A DNA stretch of 64,000 bases from Candidatus Latescibacterota bacterium. GTDB lineage: Bacteria > Latescibacterota > UBA2968 > GCA-2709665. The stretch lies in contig CAXXXF010000004.1 in the NCBI GenBank assembly GCA_963667175.2, forward strand, positions 160,001 through 224,000, written 5' to 3'. Positions 56,970-64,000 of this stretch are shown in pieces; position 1 is the stretch's first letter; the number at the start of each line of letters is the position of its first letter. The notes under the pieces are model-generated. The model had not been told where the DNA came from. It saw only the letters and a list, made by a program, of their open reading frames with translations, and ran no database searches. The position numbers and the translations under genes were made by a program.

Positions 56970-57704
56970 TCAATACTGCCAGTCCGCATGCGCCAGTGGC
57001 GATCGATTGAGTTCGTCCCGATGATAGCGCCAAGTTGGCATGAACCTGTCCATCAGCGACCGAAAACGATCGTTGTGACGACGCTCAATCAAGTGAACCA
57101 TTTCATGGAGAACGACAAAGTCTAGGCAGGATGACGGTTTCTTTGCCAACTCGAGATTCAGCCAGATTCGGCGGGCATCCGGGTTGCAGGTACCCCATCG
57201 AGTCTTCATCTTTCTGATACGAGCTTCATTGACGTGCACACCCAATTCAGGCTCCCACTTCGCGATGAGACCCGGTAGACGATCTCGGAGTTGCTGGCGG
57301 TACCATCGATCCATCACGGCTTCTCTGGTATTCCGGTCGGCCCTCGGTCGTACGCACATTCCCATTGTCGTGTTATTGATGAGACAAACCGAAGGTTGTC
57401 CGTCACATTCCGTAACATCGAGTCGGTAGCGCCTTCCCTCGAAGTAATGGCTTTCACCAGTGACGAATTCCCGTTGGGACTGCCGATTTTGCTTCTCGAA
57501 TTTCGACTGATGGCGACGAATCCATCCCAGCCGAGAAACAACAGCCATCCGCACCGCGTCATCATCAAGACTGAGCGGAGCGGCCACTCTAACCCTGCCG
57601 TTCGGTGGGTAGACCCCAATATGGAGGTTCTTGATGTCCTTGTGGACCACATCGACCGCAGTCCCTTGTACATCAATGCTGTAAGTTTTCCACTCAGTAT
57701 TCAC
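56970..57704 (-). CDS. YgjP/DUF45 (M48-like) metal hydrolase, copy 1
   Basis: Same motifs (HEMVH). Overlaps the hsdR stop, the usual position in type I RM loci. Confidence 0.92.
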   Translation of the reverse strand: MNTEWKTYSIDVQGTAVDVVHKDIKNLHIGVYPPNGRVRVAAPLSLDDDAVRMAVVSRLGWIRRHQSKFEKQNRQSQREFVTGESHYFEGRRYRLDVTECDGQPSVCLINNTTMGMCVRPRADRNTREAVMDRWYRQQLRDRLPGLIAKWEPELGVHVNEARIRKMKTRWGTCNPDARRIWLNLELAKKPSSCLDFVVLHEMVHLIERRHNDRFRSLMDRFMPTWRYHRDELNRSPLAHADWQY

Positions 57705-60700
57705 TCTGCGCCTTTACAATCTCAAATATTCGGTACACCAGGCCCTCATTGTCGCCGAGTTGCGACCTTATAGCGTTGCGGACCTCCCGTTCCTTGAATT
57801 TGTTTCCACGCCAGTCCGCTTTCTTGACGCTACGAATGGCGTGATCAACCGCGACAGCCTTTGCGGAAAGTTCATCCGCGGAAAACTCCATCCCGGTGTC
57901 GGCATAGGGTTTGTCTTGCCCAAGTGCGGCACCCTGTAAGTTATCGAATAGAGACCTGAGCGTGTTGGTGTCGATTTCCGACGGATATGACGTCTCGGAT
58001 TCAGGGCTGCTGACTTTTTTGGCCAAGTCAATAATTCTCGCAAGGTACATCTTGTAGTCGAGGCTTTCCTGCTTACGCTGAAGGATCAGGGCGTCCAACA
58101 ACTCAGACATCTTGCCGTAATATTTAGGGTTGACCGGGGTCTCGTCGATGATGAGACGGCGGACGTTATTCTCTATCGTCTCGGCCGTCGCCTCCTGATC
58201 ACTGCGAATACCATCTGGAAGTGCATCTAACGCCTTATCGCCTCGTTTGACGATTAGCTGTACAAGTGTCAGATCGTCAAACGTCGAGAGTCTTTCACTT
58301 TCCTCGGCGCGGATGTAGGTGTCGAGAAGGTGCCGCATGGCCGGCTCATACATCTTCAGGTCAATGTAGTCGCCACTCGCGAGTTTGACCTCCTTGCGGA
58401 CATTCTCGTAGTGATCCACTTCTATTTTTATTTCCTGCGCCTCGGCATCACTGTAACCTGCCTCATGCATTTCGTTGGCCAGGTTGGCGTAAGCTCGCAA
58501 AAGCGCCGCAGTCCGCCTATAGAGGGCTAGACGCCGTGGCTCAGTTTCCTTGAGACCCTTGATACTTCCACCATCCGTCCCGCAGAAGAAACGCCGATAT
58601 GACGCAGAGTCGCGTGGCAGCGCGACCGGCTCACACAGCGCCCGTATAGCCTCGCGTGTCTCCTCAAGCCGCTCACGCCCCTTCGCGAGCCTGTCCGTCA
58701 GCAACCCCTGCACATCGGCATGGTCGTACCCGCCGAAGGCACCTCCGGTGTAATCCTGAATCGACTGCTCCAACGAACGGAACAGGTCCTTGTAGTCGAC
58801 GATATATCCGTACACTTTGTCCTCACCGTCGAGGCGGTTGACACGGCAGATCGCCTGGAAGAGCCCATGGTCCTGCATGTGTTTGTCGATGTAGAGATAG
58901 GTAGCAGAGGGTGCATCGAAACCGGTCAGGAGCTTATCTACCACGATAAGGAGCTTCATCTGCCCCGGCTCCTTTACGAATCGCTTCTTAACCTCGCGTT
59001 CAAACCGCTCAACCTTGTTCATTGCGGTGTCTTCCGGCTCGTTGAAGTGCACCGCAAGCATCTGTCGGTAGATACCGTACCGGCGTAGCCTCTCGGTAAG
59101 CCCTTCGCCGGTCTCCTCACCCTTGATGTCCCCGGGCGCTGGCTTGTAGGATGTGACGATGGCGCACTTACCCGCCAAATCAGTCTGCTGAAACATCTCA
59201 AAAAAGCGGCACGCAGAGTCGATGCTGCCAGAGACCAGCAGGGCGTTGCCCTTACCGCTCTTAAGTCGGTCGCATATCTCCATGTCTAGCTGAATGTCGG
59301 CGACGATTTTCTCCAAGCGATCCCGTGAACTTAACACTCTCCGCATGGTGCCCCAACGCTGTTTAAGTTGGGCCTTCGCTACGTCAGTCAATCCTTTGGT
59401 CTTGACTTCGAACCACTGATCTATCTTGTCCTGAGAGGTAATATTCTGGTCGATGTCACGTGCTTCGTAACGCAAGTCCAGCACCACGCCATCGCGCACC
59501 GCTTCGTCGTACTTATAGGTGTGGATGTAGGTTCCGAAGGTCTCGATGCTGCGGCGCTTATCTGCCTTGAGCAATGGGGTTCCGGTAAAGCCAATGAGCA
59601 TAGCGCCTGGTAAAATTGCCCTCATTGCCTCGTGAAGTTTTCCGGACTGGGTGCGGTGACATTCGTCCACGAAAACGAAAATCTCGCCCTTGGGACGGAA
59701 ATCACCGGGTAGATTCTTCTTGATCTCCTCGACGTAGGCCTCGATTTCTCTTTCGCTGATATCGTCGGTTGTACCGAACTTGTGGATAAGGGAGCCGATC
59801 AGCCACTCGTCGGGTCTGTTAAGTACCTGCACGAGATCAGCTCCACTTTTCGTCCGGTAGATGTCCTCGCTGACACCCTTGAAAACAGCCTCAATTTGCT
59901 CGTCCAACTCCGTGCGATCCGTTATGAGAAGGACCCTTGCGTCGGTGACGTTCTCGCGAATCCATTTCGCAAGCCAGACCATCGTCAGGCTCTTGCCACT
60001 CCCTTGCGTGTGCCAGATGATGCCACCCTCCCGGCTTTTCACTCGGACTTGGGCAGCCCGCGCACCGAAGTATTGGTTGTGGCGGCAAGTCTTCTTTACC
60101 CCAGCGTCAAAGACGACGAAGTCATGTATTATCTCAAGTAATCGCTCTTTGCTGCAGAGTTGACTCAGCTCGCGCAATAAAGGATTGTCGCCGGCAGCCG
60201 GGTTGGCGTTCGCTTCCTTCCAGTGCAGCCAGTATTTTTCAGGTGTCTCGATTACACCGTAACGCAACCCCTCGGTATCATTGCCCGCCATCACGAGTTG
60301 CACGGTGGTGAAAAAGGGGCGGATGAACTCCTTTTTCTGGTTGTCAAGGTTTTGACGAATGCCCTCGGTCACAGAAACCGTCGAGCGCTTCAGTTCCAGG
60401 ATCCCGAGAGCGATCCCATTGACGTATAGCACAATGTCCGGACGTTTGCTGTTCGTCGCTGAGATTGTAACCTCTTCGGCGATTGCAAAGTCGTTATTGC
60501 CAGGATTCTCCCAGTCCATCAGCCAGACAGTGACATTCGGTTCGCCGACGTCCGGTCGGACCTTCACTCCGTAACGGAGCAGGCTGTATACCTCGCGGTT
60601 TGCTTCGTATAGTGTCTTGCTGCCGCCGAGTGCTGATGCTTTGTCCAGTTCGCGCAGAACCTTGTTTACGACATTGTCGGCGTAACCATTGCGCTTCAGC

Positions 60701-60855
60701 CAATCGGTGAGCAGCCTTTTCTCAACATTACCGTTATCGGCGCGATCCTGCCAGTGGCCGAGATTGGAGTACCCTAGCGAATCCCGCAAGAAAGAAATCA
60801 CCCGTCGCTGTGTGCGAAATTCGTTTTGACCGATTGTGTTCATGTACGTTCGCAA
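57694..60855 (-). CDS. hsdR: Type I restriction endonuclease subunit R
   Basis: RPDIVLYVNG...ELK, WHTQGSGKS, DECHR, GFTGTP, LLTGFDAP, QAICRVNR. Confidence 0.97.
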   Translation of the reverse strand: MRTYMNTIGQNEFRTQRRVISFLRDSLGYSNLGHWQDRADNGNVEKRLLTDWLKRNGYADNVVNKVLRELDKASALGGSKTLYEANREVYSLLRYGVKVRPDVGEPNVTVWLMDWENPGNNDFAIAEEVTISATNSKRPDIVLYVNGIALGILELKRSTVSVTEGIRQNLDNQKKEFIRPFFTTVQLVMAGNDTEGLRYGVIETPEKYWLHWKEANANPAAGDNPLLRELSQLCSKERLLEIIHDFVVFDAGVKKTCRHNQYFGARAAQVRVKSREGGIIWHTQGSGKSLTMVWLAKWIRENVTDARVLLITDRTELDEQIEAVFKGVSEDIYRTKSGADLVQVLNRPDEWLIGSLIHKFGTTDDISEREIEAYVEEIKKNLPGDFRPKGEIFVFVDECHRTQSGKLHEAMRAILPGAMLIGFTGTPLLKADKRRSIETFGTYIHTYKYDEAVRDGVVLDLRYEARDIDQNITSQDKIDQWFEVKTKGLTDVAKAQLKQRWGTMRRVLSSRDRLEKIVADIQLDMEICDRLKSGKGNALLVSGSIDSACRFFEMFQQTDLAGKCAIVTSYKPAPGDIKGEETGEGLTERLRRYGIYRQMLAVHFNEPEDTAMNKVERFEREVKKRFVKEPGQMKLLIVVDKLLTGFDAPSATYLYIDKHMQDHGLFQAICRVNRLDGEDKVYGYIVDYKDLFRSLEQSIQDYTGGAFGGYDHADVQGLLTDRLAKGRERLEETREAIRALCEPVALPRDSASYRRFFCGTDGGSIKGLKETEPRRLALYRRTAALLRAYANLANEMHEAGYSDAEAQEIKIEVDHYENVRKEVKLASGDYIDLKMYEPAMRHLLDTYIRAEESERLSTFDDLTLVQLIVKRGDKALDALPDGIRSDQEATAETIENNVRRLIIDETPVNPKYYGKMSELLDALILQRKQESLDYKMYLARIIDLAKKVSSPESETSYPSEIDTNTLRSLFDNLQGAALGQDKPYADTGMEFSADELSAKAVAVDHAIRSVKKADWRGNKFKEREVRNAIRSQLGDNEGLVYRIFEIVKAQSEY

Positions 60856-60918: not shown

Positions 60919-61419
60919 TCAATCGTCCATCAGGTCTGGACATACAAACACCACGTGAATCCCATTTTTTTGAAGTGTTGCGCGGTGGTGCCACCAATCT
61001 GTATCAGATGCGTTTAACAACTCCGGACTAGAATGGCTAGCCAACGCTACAGCCACGAACTTTCGATCATCCCAATCGAAAGTATCGAGATCTGGGTCAT
61101 TGGGAAACTCCTCGAAGCCACGGTCTCGGTGAGGCTTTACTGTGATTTTCCGGCAATGCTGGTCGTTAGCTTGGTTTTTCCAAAGCCACAGGAAGAAATA
61201 GTCCCCGAGACCAGGCTCCCCTGAAGGGTTGAGGTTTCTTCGGTATTCGTCAATAATCAGATTCTCGTCGTCAAGAAGAAGCCGAAACCCTCCGTTCTGG
61301 ATCATACTTAATGTTTCTCTACACTTAAATATGCAACTCCGATTGAAGTCTTGGTAATTATGATTTGCAACTACGGCGACATTGGTATCCATGATTATCT
61401 CAGGTTTCTTCGAATTCAC
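60919..61419 (-). CDS. PIN-like domain protein
   Basis: IMDTNVAVVAN...IIDEY...DWDDRKFVAVA...SDTDW, the acidic PIN pattern. Confidence 0.75.
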   Translation of the reverse strand: MNSKKPEIIMDTNVAVVANHNYQDFNRSCIFKCRETLSMIQNGGFRLLLDDENLIIDEYRRNLNPSGEPGLGDYFFLWLWKNQANDQHCRKITVKPHRDRGFEEFPNDPDLDTFDWDDRKFVAVALASHSSPELLNASDTDWWHHRATLQKNGIHVVFVCPDLMDD

Positions 61420-61430
61420 TCGAGATACCC

Positions 61431-62786
61431 CTACCTATTCTGTAAGGCCTCGCTCATGGCGGCAATTTCACCGAACTGATCCCCAAAGAACCCTTTAGGC
61501 CAATTGGAAATATTCCCGAATTTGTCAAGCTCGAGCTGGCTAATGTTTGAGGCACCCTGGTCGTTCATTGAACAGAAATAAAGGCTAACGTCATCCTTGT
61601 TGATCTTTCCTTCTGCGATTCGACGTTGAAGTCTAAGCAATAGATGTTCGCTATGGCTTTCGAACAAGACCTGTACATTCCGCTGCTGCCAAGCGTCAAT
61701 AAATACATCAGCAAGGCCCGCTTGTACAGAAGGATGCAAGTGAATCTCTGGCTGCTCCAATATGATCTTGGACTTACGTGGAACATAGAAACAAAGCACC
61801 AATACGGGAAGTATCTGGGAAACTCCGAAGCCGATGTCAGTGAGGAGAACCTCAGCTGAATTGGGTGACTTACGGACCCTTACTTCGAATAAGCGTCTCC
61901 CTTTAGTCAATGCCACTACGCGAAAATCGTATATCAATCCGAGACGCATAAGCCATTGCGCGATATATCTTTCGAAACTTAGAGGTCGTCGTCGATGGCT
62001 AATCCTTCTTCCACGTTCGCGAGACGATAGGATTGCGTCTACCGCAAATTCGCCTGCCTGGCCCATATCGCGAGGTTGTGCACCAGATCGTGCGTAGATC
62101 CGAGACGGATAGGCACGCAGAGGTCCGAGATAAAAGAGACTCCTTAAGGACAATTCCAATGCGTATTGAAGGCTGTACATTATGGCCGGGTCTTTGAAGA
62201 ACTCAGGAAGCCAATATCTAAACTCGTGAAATTTAACCGAACGAACTAGCCTATCGTCATCCCTCACACGGTGAGACCTATCCCTTCCGGCACCACGTAC
62301 AAACAGATCGTGTTCCTTCTTTCCCGGTACTCGCACCAAACCAAACCGTCTTCCGCGGACAGTATATGCCATTTTTTTTACTAGTGGCGACTTCCCAGAA
62401 CCGACATTCTCCTCTGTGACATCGACATCAAATCCAATTTCGTCACCTGGCGTTGGAGGTTGGGTGTTAATCGTATCGTCAAATGGCAGCTCAATCTCTG
62501 AGTTCCAGCCGAGCGAAAGTCTAATACTTTGCTTTGTGTCATGCTGGTGGACCACGCTTTCAAAGTCACCTAGGTTCACAGGGGATTTTTCATCGCCGAA
62601 GTGAAATACAATTCCCGGGTCTGAAGAGTCGACCGTTTGTTTCATTAACAGCAAAGCTTGAAAAAGGCTGGTCTTGCCAGAACTATTGGTACCAAAAAAA
62701 CCTGTGATAGGCTTAAACGTAATGTCCCCTGTATCTTTCCAGGATTTAAAATTCTCCAAACGTAGCCGTGTCAACATTTGGGGCAC
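61431..62786 (-). CDS. ABC/AAA_21-type ATPase with C-terminal DUF3696
   Basis: LENFKSW, GTNSSGKT, GFGVSQILP, EQPEIHLHP, ESHSEH, WPKGFF. Confidence 0.92.
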   Translation of the reverse strand: MPQMLTRLRLENFKSWKDTGDITFKPITGFFGTNSSGKTSLFQALLLMKQTVDSSDPGIVFHFGDEKSPVNLGDFESVVHQHDTKQSIRLSLGWNSEIELPFDDTINTQPPTPGDEIGFDVDVTEENVGSGKSPLVKKMAYTVRGRRFGLVRVPGKKEHDLFVRGAGRDRSHRVRDDDRLVRSVKFHEFRYWLPEFFKDPAIMYSLQYALELSLRSLFYLGPLRAYPSRIYARSGAQPRDMGQAGEFAVDAILSSRERGRRISHRRRPLSFERYIAQWLMRLGLIYDFRVVALTKGRRLFEVRVRKSPNSAEVLLTDIGFGVSQILPVLVLCFYVPRKSKIILEQPEIHLHPSVQAGLADVFIDAWQQRNVQVLFESHSEHLLLRLQRRIAEGKINKDDVSLYFCSMNDQGASNISQLELDKFGNISNWPKGFFGDQFGEIAAMSEALQNR

Positions 62787-62995: not shown

Positions 62996-63499
62996 CTAAC
63001 GATTCTCGGATTCCCTCTCAATGATACTTGCAAGCTGATCTTGTCTCCAGGGTACGACATTAATATTGTTGTCGATTATTGCCTTAGGAAGTCGTCGTGG
63101 AGGAGTGTTTCCTTTGTGCATAGCGACGACGGCTTTCCCAATTTCAATGCTCTCTCTTATCTCCCAGTCGACCCATTTGCTACTTACGGTATTTTCAGAC
63201 ACATAGACAACAGTTACAGAAGATTGGCGAATGCGTTCCCTAATACCGCGCCTAATATAGTCGGCTACCTCACTGTCGAACGGTTTTCTCAGTGACCAAT
63301 CATTGAAATTTATGTTGCTGTCTTGGTTCCTCGCCTGAGCACGCAGCAAATTAACCTCATTGAGATCATCCGATGAAAAGCTAATAAACACATTGCGTTT
63401 GTGCTCGTCGACACGATCCTTAAGGGACCGTCTGACACGCTGCTCGAGTGACTCCAGTTCGTTTGGGTCTAATCCTCTACCACTGCCTATGCCGCCCAT
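62996..63499 (-). CDS. TIR-like (DUF1863/MTH538, ThsB-like) protein with N-terminal GGIGSG
   Basis: NVFISF, DWS, IRERIRQSSVTVV, SKWVDWEI (catalytic Glu). Confidence 0.9.
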   Translation of the reverse strand: MGGIGSGRGLDPNELESLEQRVRRSLKDRVDEHKRNVFISFSSDDLNEVNLLRAQARNQDSNINFNDWSLRKPFDSEVADYIRRGIRERIRQSSVTVVYVSENTVSSKWVDWEIRESIEIGKAVVAMHKGNTPPRRLPKAIIDNNINVVPWRQDQLASIIERESENR

Positions 63500-63501
63500 T
63501 T

Positions 63502-64000
63502 CTATCTCCTTTTTTCAGCATTATCGATCTCAATACAAGCGATACAAACCCCGCAAGGATCTTTACCACCAGCGTGACACGAATAGGTTTGTGTGATCCC
63601 TCGTTTGCTGGCCAAAAGCAAGACATCTCGCTTTGACAATTCCAGTAAAGGCGCAAGGACAAGAATGCGGCTCCCCATCGCAATCTCGATCATCCTTTCA
63701 CATTCATCCAAGAAGTGTTTCGTCTGGTCTGGGAAGATGTGATCAGCGGGATTGAGTAGACCGAGCGCGATGCTATTTGCCTGAACATCAATTGCATGAG
63801 CCGCACCTGCCAAGACAAATAGGAGATTGCGGCCCGGCAAAAAAGCATCCTCATTTATGCGCAAATTACAGTTTGTGAGACCACTCGAGATCGTCTTTCC
63901 AAACCCAGACACGTCCATGTACGTAGCAGGTGGTAGACCAAATTGTGAGTGAAGGCGCTCGCAGGCCTCCCATTCCTCGCGTACGGCAAGTTGGCCATAG
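63502..64000 (-). CDS. QueC-like protein (Cap9/QatC type), 5' end outside the window
   Basis: Frame open to the window edge, reading YGQLAVREEW...FLPGRNLLF...FPD...SK.D...TYSCH..PCGVCIAC. Confidence 0.9.
   Translation of the reverse strand, partial: YGQLAVREEWEACERLHSQFGLPPATYMDVSGFGKTISSGLTNCNLRINEDAFLPGRNLLFVLAGAAHAIDVQANSIALGLLNPADHIFPDQTKHFLDECERMIEIAMGSRILVLAPLLELSKRDVLLLASKRGITQTYSCHAGGKDPCGVCIACIEIDNAEKRR

Follow-up and report, generated by a model that had tools for sequence, protein, structure and literature searches.

The attachment of a deazaguanine base to proteins was demonstrated only in 2025, for the cGAS/DncV-like nucleotidyltransferases (CD-NTases) of cyclic-oligonucleotide-based anti-phage signalling systems (CBASS) and for the QatB protein. 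In type IV CBASS, Cap9 puts 7-amido-7-deazaguanine on Gly2 of the CD-NTase and Cap10 binds the tagged tip; both proteins are needed for defence and Cap11 is dispensable (Wassarman et al. bioRxiv 10.1101/2025.04.06.647259). The CD-NTase tip follows the motif M(G/S)G(G/S)GG, with GGSGGSFGSGFDPR as the modified peptide, and helix alpha1 of CdnD docks on Cap9 and Cap10. Moreover, the Cap10 residue D73 (nucleobase recognition) and the catalytic pair H226/D248 are needed in CBASS, and an OGG-like gene occurs in about one third of the type IV operons (bioRxiv 10.1101/2025.04.06.647259). Here, we analyzed a stretch of 64,000 nucleotides from a Candidatus Latescibacterota bacterium (contig CAXXXF010000004.1 of assembly GCA_963667175.2; the whole stretch is called the window), at whose end a QueC-like gene directly precedes the gene of a small TIR protein with a glycine-rich N-terminus. 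The two genes belong to a cassette of five genes, which is probably a Thoeris-type anti-phage signalling operon that has adopted the accessory machinery of type IV CBASS, with the glycine tip of the TIR protein being tagged by the QueC-like enzyme.

The other closest relatives are found among the Thoeris systems. A 2025 preprint on these systems states in its accessible part that the effectors of type VII (ThsH, with SLATT domain) and of type VIII (ThsI, with TPR) both respond to canonical cyclic ADP-ribose (cADPR), and that small ThsB-type TIR proteins with SLATT or TPR-S partners are the signal producers in both types. The same preprint predicts from genomes Thoeris operons with Cap9, Cap10 and Cap11 as ancillary genes and shows one AlphaFold3 example (6G, S10B), with interface predicted template modelling (ipTM) scores of 0.79 for TIR-Cap10 and 0.62 for TIR-Cap9. 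Hence, this kind of system is already predicted in print and the window locus is a further example of it. The present study adds counts of the tip together with QueC-less controls and shows that the Cap10-type catalytic residues are invariant and that the OGG-like gene is retained at a high rate, none of which is reported in the accessible text of the preprint. It also adds how large and widespread the family is, with culturable strains among its hosts, and describes fusions of TIR or Schlafen AlbA_2 domains to the TGT-like protein. A survey of the QueC family (PMC13329287) reports that a CD-NTase gene adjoins 67% of the genes in the Cap9 cluster, which has the motif YxQx5E without His, and a term count in its accessible text did not find the word TIR. 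In PMC13376578, Thoeris is named in the reference list only, and the literature on QueC with Thoeris or on SLATT with QueC and TGT gave no further report of the TIR version.

Results

Organization of the five-gene cassette

The end of the window (contig C4 of genome G000, positions 160001-224000) cuts the operon, and the missing part was read from the 20 kb locus L002 on the same contig (G000:C4:216000-235999; window position = L002 position + 55999). The full cassette consists of five co-directional genes that are tightly spaced or overlapping, in the order two-transmembrane SLATT effector, tRNA-guanine transglycosylase-like (TGT-like) protein, 8-oxoguanine glycosylase-like (OGG-like) protein, QueC-like protein and ThsB-type TIR protein; every relevant gene is on the minus strand (Table 1). 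A preliminary description, made from the window, had seen two of the five genes and placed the end of the QueC-like gene 2 nt before the TIR gene. This is correct: the stop codon TAG of the QueC-like gene (63504-63502) is followed by AA (63501-63500) and by the ATG of the TIR gene at 63499, which has an AGGAG Shine-Dalgarno sequence a few bases upstream. The adjacent upstream sequence contains the TGT-like gene and, further on, hsdM and hsdS, and no CD-NTase was found among the five cassette proteins. As stated before, no ThsA-type effector gene follows downstream; the SLATT effector gene lies upstream, beyond the window end. A promoter and terminator scan of the cassette gave 7 and 5 sites, respectively, which is not above the values for shuffled sequences (7.9 and 6.7). 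No RNA run is listed among the sequencing runs, and four runs of one study share 0.17 of the locus words.

The TIR product begins with M-G-G-I-G-S-G-R-G, and its proposed architecture of tip, short helix and TIR fold was recovered with the open reading frame, an AlphaFold2 model and a Foldseek search. In the model, which was built on 28 relatives and has a mean predicted local distance difference test (pLDDT) score of 74.8, residues 1-10 are unstructured (pLDDT < 50), and a helix at 12-28 and a linker lead over to an alpha/beta core that spans 35-165. The tip-and-helix module before the TIR core has 34 residues. The best Foldseek matches are solved bacterial TIR/ThsB chains (8fz9 at 1e-9, 8wcf, 6lhy, 9b7d) and SARM1. 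The TIR glutamate claimed before corresponds to E113 in the motif WVDWEIRES; solved ThsB chains have this motif too, with their Glu in the aligned position, and E113 is invariant in 28/28 sequences. We take E113 to be the catalytic residue of the TIR protein. The pattern (D/E)L..LE..AK of the helix is kept in the alignment A1. Four more ThsB-type TIR matches are found in the source genome, on contigs C13, C14, C15 and C18.

The glycine tip among QueC-linked TIR proteins

Two scans were made for related loci. With the TIR protein as query against species-representative genomes, 39 loci were found, and in 31 of them the TIR gene is directly preceded by a QueC-like gene. An alignment of the TGT-like protein served as query in the second scan and yielded 150 relatives; the best 79 loci were kept, 77 of them new. 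A short open reading frame (ORF; 111-197 amino acids, aa) follows the QueC-like gene in 72 of these 77 loci, and none of these ORFs has the size of a CD-NTase. Three loci have no such ORF (two at contig ends, one without start codon by our rule) and the remaining two have no QueC-like match. After pooling of both scans and collapsing of identical proteins, 81 distinct QueC-linked and 7 QueC-less TIR proteins were compared, with seven loci excluded from the count (L025, L100 and L113 without start; L064, L076, L077 and L116 without TIR match). The start was set mechanically as the start codon in the TIR frame nearest to the QueC stop.

By this rule 74 of the 81 QueC-linked proteins begin with M-G-G, and three others (L004, L084, L020) have M/V-G-G a few codons on, so that the glycine tip recurs in 77/81 distinct proteins, far beyond chance. 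Gly and Ser predominate at positions 4-8, in agreement with the CBASS motif. Among the QueC-less relatives the tip is present in 0/7; these resemble the window TIR from residue 34-35 onward and have either different N-terminal extensions or no extension at all. The suggestion that the tip distinguishes QueC-adjacent TIR proteins from others was thus borne out by the counts. The link of the tip to QueC adjacency was observed directly in these loci, as were gene content, gene order and the conserved motifs. In most loci the QueC-like gene and the TIR gene are spaced by 1-3 nt, and a TGT-like gene is found in 78 and an OGG-like gene in 73 of the 81 QueC-linked loci. The QueC-linked TIR cores come from many bacterial phyla and three archaeal lineages.

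Some single loci differ from this picture. The TIR protein of L019 (MGN, no OGG-like gene) is sister to the QueC-less clade of L027, L034 and L035 in the tree of TIR cores (SH-aLRT 98), which looks like a stepwise loss of the accessory module. In L037 and L038, from Methanothrix-type archaea, the QueC-like and TIR genes are adjacent without glycine tip, TGT-like or OGG-like gene, and L037 has two radical-SAM genes upstream; the QueC-like/TIR pair may have a different use there. Finally, a 111-aa protein follows the QueC-like gene in L076 (6729-7064). It starts with MIMGGSGGSGG and shows the usual helix pattern, has no TIR or other Pfam match, and represents either a truncated gene or a different acceptor.

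The accessory proteins and the effector

The QueC-like protein matches Pfam QueC at 4.8e-24 with its part in the window and at 1e-34 with all 198 aa, and the PADLOC QueC model at 6.1e-28. A single-sequence search of the PDB gave Cap9 (9nto_B, 5.5e-13) and QueC (2pg3, 7.6e-13). Residues S8, G9, G10, D12 and S13 of the pyrophosphate loop, R90, D124 and four cysteines are invariant; by motif, D124 is the nucleobase-binding Asp, with an aromatic residue at 122, and the four cysteines are Zn ligands. In the QueC-family survey (PMC13329287), Cap9 is characterized by LxSGGxDS, Y/FxQx5E, RN, an aromatic-x-D nucleobase site, P-x5-K and four Zn cysteines. This motif set is present (L6-S8GGFDS13, Y34-G-Q36...E42, R90-N91, F122-P-D124, P150...K156, C174/C182/C185/C188) and invariant or nearly so in 28 sequences. 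It deviates from the published Cap9 motifs in FPDQ versus YxDC and in PL versus PF, and its 198 aa compare with about 185 aa for Cap9. The Cap9-type Y-x-Q-x5-E is kept as YGQLAVREE, with Ala at the position of the canonical His, and the alignment A2 contains no conserved His. A complex model of the QueC-like and TIR proteins scored 0.55, with 0.00 for the best of three controls, and lends weak support to their interaction. In the calibration, 58/80 solved complexes and 2/110 mismatched pairs passed the mark; of these, only 7 solved complexes and both mismatched pairs did so with a score of 0.60 or less. The runs agree in at least 69% of the contacts and the partner pLDDT is at least 74.

Among PDB entries, Cap10 matches the TGT-like protein best (9ntn_A, 2.2e-15 with a profile). 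Residues D114, H241 and D263 of the TGT-like protein align with D73, H226 and D248 of Cap10 and are invariant in 23/23 relatives. Relatives of this protein are found in at least 150 species-level genomes. N-terminal fusions occur with a TIR_2 domain in Rhizobium plasmids (L131 4566-5969) and in L030 (3149-4663), and with Schlafen AlbA_2 in L018 (3116-4651), and an in-frame stop codon lies within the TGT-like frame of L013 and of L023, two loci from Poribacteria. The gene before the TGT-like gene is SLATT/DUF4231 in most related loci (tblastn matches; two short forms; 8/8 upstream ORFs tested in other loci), and a MAP3K_TRAF_bd/TPR-S protein in three loci or a second TIR protein in two takes the effector position.

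Comparison with CBASS, Thoeris and QatABCD

The cassette resembles type IV CBASS in its QueC-like, TGT-like and OGG-like accessory genes (Cap9, Cap10, Cap11) together with a two-transmembrane effector, in the M-G-G-(G/S) tip and docking-type helix on the signal-producing enzyme, with the MGGIGSG of the window TIR fitting the motif, and in the equivalents of Cap10 D73/H226/D248 and the SxGxDS motif of Cap9. It differs in that a TIR protein, a type of enzyme with NAD+-derived signals, replaces the CD-NTase (0/5 cassette proteins match a CD-NTase family), the accessory proteins are only 26-34% identical to their CBASS counterparts, the OGG-like gene is retained in 73/81 loci compared with about one third of the CBASS operons, and the order is TGT-OGG-QueC-TIR here versus Cap9-Cap10-CD-NTase on three plasmids.

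These plasmids were found by a search of plasmid proteins with the TGT-like query, which gave 17 records. Thirteen of them (Rhizobium 10, Agrobacterium 2, Neorhizobium 1) have at least 80% query coverage and 38-40% identity, and one such record contains a TIR-TGT fusion, an HhH-GPD glycosylase, a '7-cyano-7-deazaguanine synthase' and a small TIR protein. The other four are weak matches (Bacillus 3, Pseudanabaena 1); three were inspected and carry a QueC-type synthase, a hypothetical protein and then a 'CBASS oligonucleotide cyclase'. All three cyclases start with MGGSGG followed by a helix (e.g. ...LSQLEQEKQEQ), very like the tips of TIR proteins such as MGGSGGGGFRSSDLERLEQKAKQ (L033). Because the tips of CBASS cyclases and TIR proteins are alike, the tip plus helix appears to be a handle common to unrelated signal-producing enzymes. 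Homology of this handle to the CdnD tail is not demonstrable by sequence search, because a phmmer search of the PDB with residues 1-36 gave a chance match only (triosephosphate isomerase, E = 0.7). With the PADLOC TGT model, 4/401 genomes of the order of a Rhizobium genome gave matches.

Regarding Thoeris, the gene set is the same as in the operons with Cap9/Cap10/Cap11 ancillary genes of the 2025 preprint, in whose accessible part the binding of the TIR protein by Cap9 and Cap10 is the proposed logic. The ThsB-type TIR protein and the SLATT-domain membrane effector are shared with type VII (ThsB + SLATT ThsH, canonical cADPR, according to the same text), but unlike in the two-gene type VII systems three extra genes lie between effector and TIR, and the TIR protein carries the tip-and-helix module. 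With QatABCD, in which QatC modifies QatB as far as the accessible text tells, the cassette shares a QueC-family enzyme, for which protein deazaguanylation in phage defence is predicted here. However, no QatA-type ATPase, QatB or TatD-like QatD was found among the cassette proteins, and the QueC-like protein keeps canonical and Cap9-type motifs that are lost in QatC according to the accessible text of the QueC-family survey (PMC13329287).

Genomic surroundings

A type I restriction-modification (R-M) locus is split around the cassette, with hsdM and hsdS upstream and hsdR downstream. Along the strand, the order is hsdM/hsdS, KwaA/KwaB-like genes, a DUF6978/DUF1828 pair, the cassette, HEC-03B/HEC-03A, hsdR and two YgjP-like genes. 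About 11 kb of defence cargo split the R-M locus. Its upstream part (L002 11076-19431, beyond the window) comprises hsdM, an unannotated 281-aa ORF, hsdS, a KwaA-like ORF with KwaB (PADLOC 4.5e-62), and DUF6978 with DUF1828 (PDC-M24B, 2.2e-18). The preliminary description had the QueC-like/TIR pair upstream of hsdR in a defence island, which holds for the island and for the position of hsdR, but another gene pair stands in between. This pair consists of an AAA_15/AAA_21/DUF3696 ATPase, matching HEC-03B (1.5e-129), and a 166-aa protein matching HEC-03A (6.7e-33). It is regarded as a separate system, because it occurs with the cassette in only 2/39 related loci (L003, L004). The neighbouring ATPase was also considered as part of a QatABCD system and rejected on the same grounds, i.e. 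its match to HEC-03B and its rare association with the cassette. The two tandem YgjP-like metallopeptidase genes are located just downstream of hsdR.

Table 1. Positions of the cassette genes, of TIR protein features and of neighbouring genes; numbers are window positions unless L002 is given.
Feature	Position	Strand	Basis
ThsB-type TIR gene, 167 aa, starts MGGIGSGRGLDPNELESLEQ	62996-63499	-	ORF; Pfam ThsB_TIR 5.9e-24; PADLOC ThsB models down to 4e-16
Glycine tip, codons 1-9 (M-G-G-I-G-S-G-R-G); conjugation is predicted at Gly2 once Met is removed	63473-63499	-	
Amphipathic helix, codons 12-28, from tip to TIR core; predicted docking helix for QueC-like and TGT-like proteins	63416-63466	-	
Codon of E113 in WVDWEIRES, conserved TIR active-site Glu	63161-63163	-	
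QueC-like (Cap9-like) gene, 198 aa in full; last 165 codons in the window, 98 bases past its end	63502-64000; L002 7503-8099	-	
OGG-type HhH-GPD glycosylase-like gene (Cap11-like), 263 aa, beyond the window	L002 8065-8856	-	Pfam Ogg-HhH 3.2e-22
TGT-like gene (Cap10-like), 354 aa, beyond the window	L002 8780-9844	-	Pfam TGT 2.2e-11; PADLOC TGT 2.2e-22
Two-transmembrane effector gene, 320 aa, beyond the window	L002 9894-10856	-	Pfam SLATT_3 1.9e-31, SLATT_1 1.3e-30, DUF4231 1.7e-14
HEC-03B/HEC-03A candidate defence pair, between TIR and hsdR	60919-62786	-	PADLOC
hsdR	57694-60855		
Two tandem YgjP-like metallopeptidase genes, 249 and 244 aa	55946-57704	-	Pfam 1.2e-64 and 1.2e-61

Discussion

The proposal that the TIR protein is the substrate of the QueC-like enzyme, which was put forward from the two genes in the window, is likely to be right and is the best-supported reading of the locus. 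It is backed in silico by the conserved tip, by the CBASS-like combination of tip and helix, and by a Cap10-like TGT protein with the critical residues. By analogy with type IV CBASS, removal of Met1 would expose the amine of Gly2. The QueC-like enzyme would adenylate 7-carboxy-7-deazaguanine supplied by the queuosine pathway of the host. Attack by the Gly2 amine would then give an N-terminal 7-amido-7-deazaguanine (NDG) tag on the TIR protein, whose helix 12-28 would meanwhile be docked on the QueC-like protein. The TGT-like protein could next take up the tagged tip in its nucleobase pocket (D114, H241, D263) and would hold or prime the TIR protein. Upon infection, the TIR protein might be released or transferred and convert NAD+ to a signal of the cyclic ADP-ribose type. 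Our best guess is canonical cADPR, since the SLATT and TPR-S effectors of type VII and VIII Thoeris respond to this molecule. The signal would let the SLATT protein assemble in the membrane, by which the infected cell would be stopped, and the OGG-like protein may act as accessory regulator.

Several points weigh against this interpretation. The identity of the signal is a guess, and tagging as well as defence by any TIR version of the system are predictions. The profile of the TIR-linked QueC-like group scores canonical QueC (6e-25) above Cap9 (2e-20), and in BLASTP the QueC-like protein is 26-29% identical (66-80 bits) to three plasmid Cap9 proteins compared with 29% (75 bits) and 23% to the QueC paralogues of its own genome. 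The score of the complex model may only echo likeness, because a Cap9-CdnD complex is already solved. Four QueC-linked TIR proteins have no Gly-Gly, namely those of L015 (MAG), L019 (MGN), L037 and L038. Furthermore, QueC linkage changes only three times on the tree of 87 TIR cores, from which L072 and L114 are absent because the core pattern missed them, and the three independent contrasts (two concordant, none discordant, one uninformative) give p = 0.5 in a sign test. The test of tip against linkage is thus underpowered, because it has only these three contrasts. We see the strength of the evidence in the near-invariant Gly-Gly across cores that are 40-50% identical, to which the contrast of 77 versus 0 adds less.

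Other explanations have to be weighed against the tagging of the TIR protein. Dpd systems use the TGT-like DpdA and QueC, and the QueC-like, TGT-like and OGG-like proteins could accordingly form a Dpd-like module that puts 7-deazaguanine in DNA, with the TIR and SLATT genes around it as an ordinary type VII Thoeris system and independent neighbour. The position of the cassette within a split type I R-M locus would fit such a role, as would the fact that the TGT family, the QueC family and the DNA-glycosylase fold are all nucleic-acid-type enzymes, and the preference of the QueC-like group profile for canonical QueC. Nevertheless, this explanation appears very improbable in view of the glycine tip in 77/81 QueC-linked versus 0/7 QueC-less TIR proteins, a tip that the CD-NTases of true type IV CBASS carry as well, and of the spacing of 1-3 nt between QueC-like and TIR genes in most loci. 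The SLATT and TIR genes also stand on either side of the three enzymes and not next to each other, the TGT-like protein has Cap10 as best PDB match, and the cassette showed no further genes of the Dpd type. Another explanation, that housekeeping queuosine/archaeosine genes for QueC and TGT came to stand beside a TIR gene by chance, could appeal to Pfam matches of both proteins above the curated cut-offs, but its probability is practically negligible. Many phyla and three archaeal lineages keep the synteny with TIR, the YxQxHxxE motif lacks its canonical His, and two paralogues elsewhere in the genome reach 204 and 193 bits with Pfam QueC versus 120 for the cassette protein. In addition, a Pfam search of the cassette proteins gave no queD or queE, and the only PTPS match of the genome, a QueD/PTPS gene, is on another contig. 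Judged from these sequence comparisons, the QueC-like gene of the cassette is not the housekeeping queC. One of the two housekeeping-type QueC matches sits in a 510-aa open frame. Because of the two better QueC paralogues and the PTPS/QueD gene elsewhere in the genome, the precursor pathway is probably present.

It might also be that the QueC-like and TGT-like proteins do act on the tip with an outcome unlike that in CBASS, for example with another adduct, or with the TIR protein as NAD+-depleting effector and the SLATT protein as a parallel effector. The TIR-linked QueC-like and TGT-like clades are well apart from Cap9 and Cap10 of CBASS (26-34% identity), the OGG-like gene is far more often retained (73/81 loci versus about one third of the type IV operons), and some relatives have an extra TIR domain, fused to the TGT-like protein or as second gene, all of which would suit a different outcome. 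On the other hand, the nucleobase- and ATP-binding residues of the QueC-like protein are conserved, and small ThsB-type TIR proteins with SLATT or TPR-S partners are signal producers in type VII and VIII Thoeris according to the accessible text of the 2025 preprint. We therefore consider such a divergent outcome unlikely. Rather unlikely, too, is a bolder version of the NDG tagging, in which the TIR-linked QueC/TGT/OGG proteins would form a large family of their own. There, the TGT-like protein would be an active transglycosylase that moves the NDG-tagged TIR protein onto a target, possibly a nucleic acid, from which the OGG-like protein would cut it off, so that a reversible nucleobase tether would time the NAD+-derived signal. 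If this transfer were true, the tip and helix would be a portable handle on unrelated enzymes such as CD-NTases, TIR proteins and the 111-aa non-TIR protein of L076.

The value of the window locus itself is modest; it is one more clean example, set in a defence island within a split type I R-M locus. The TIR version as a whole may be handier than CBASS for finding the target of the Cap10 reaction, as it is common and nearly always keeps the OGG-like gene, and its hosts include culturable strains of Rhizobium, Agrobacterium, Methylocapsa and Brachymonas. If TIR proteins are tagged in the same way as CD-NTases, deazaguanylation would be a means by which nucleotide-signalling immunity is controlled in general, rather than a peculiarity of CBASS.

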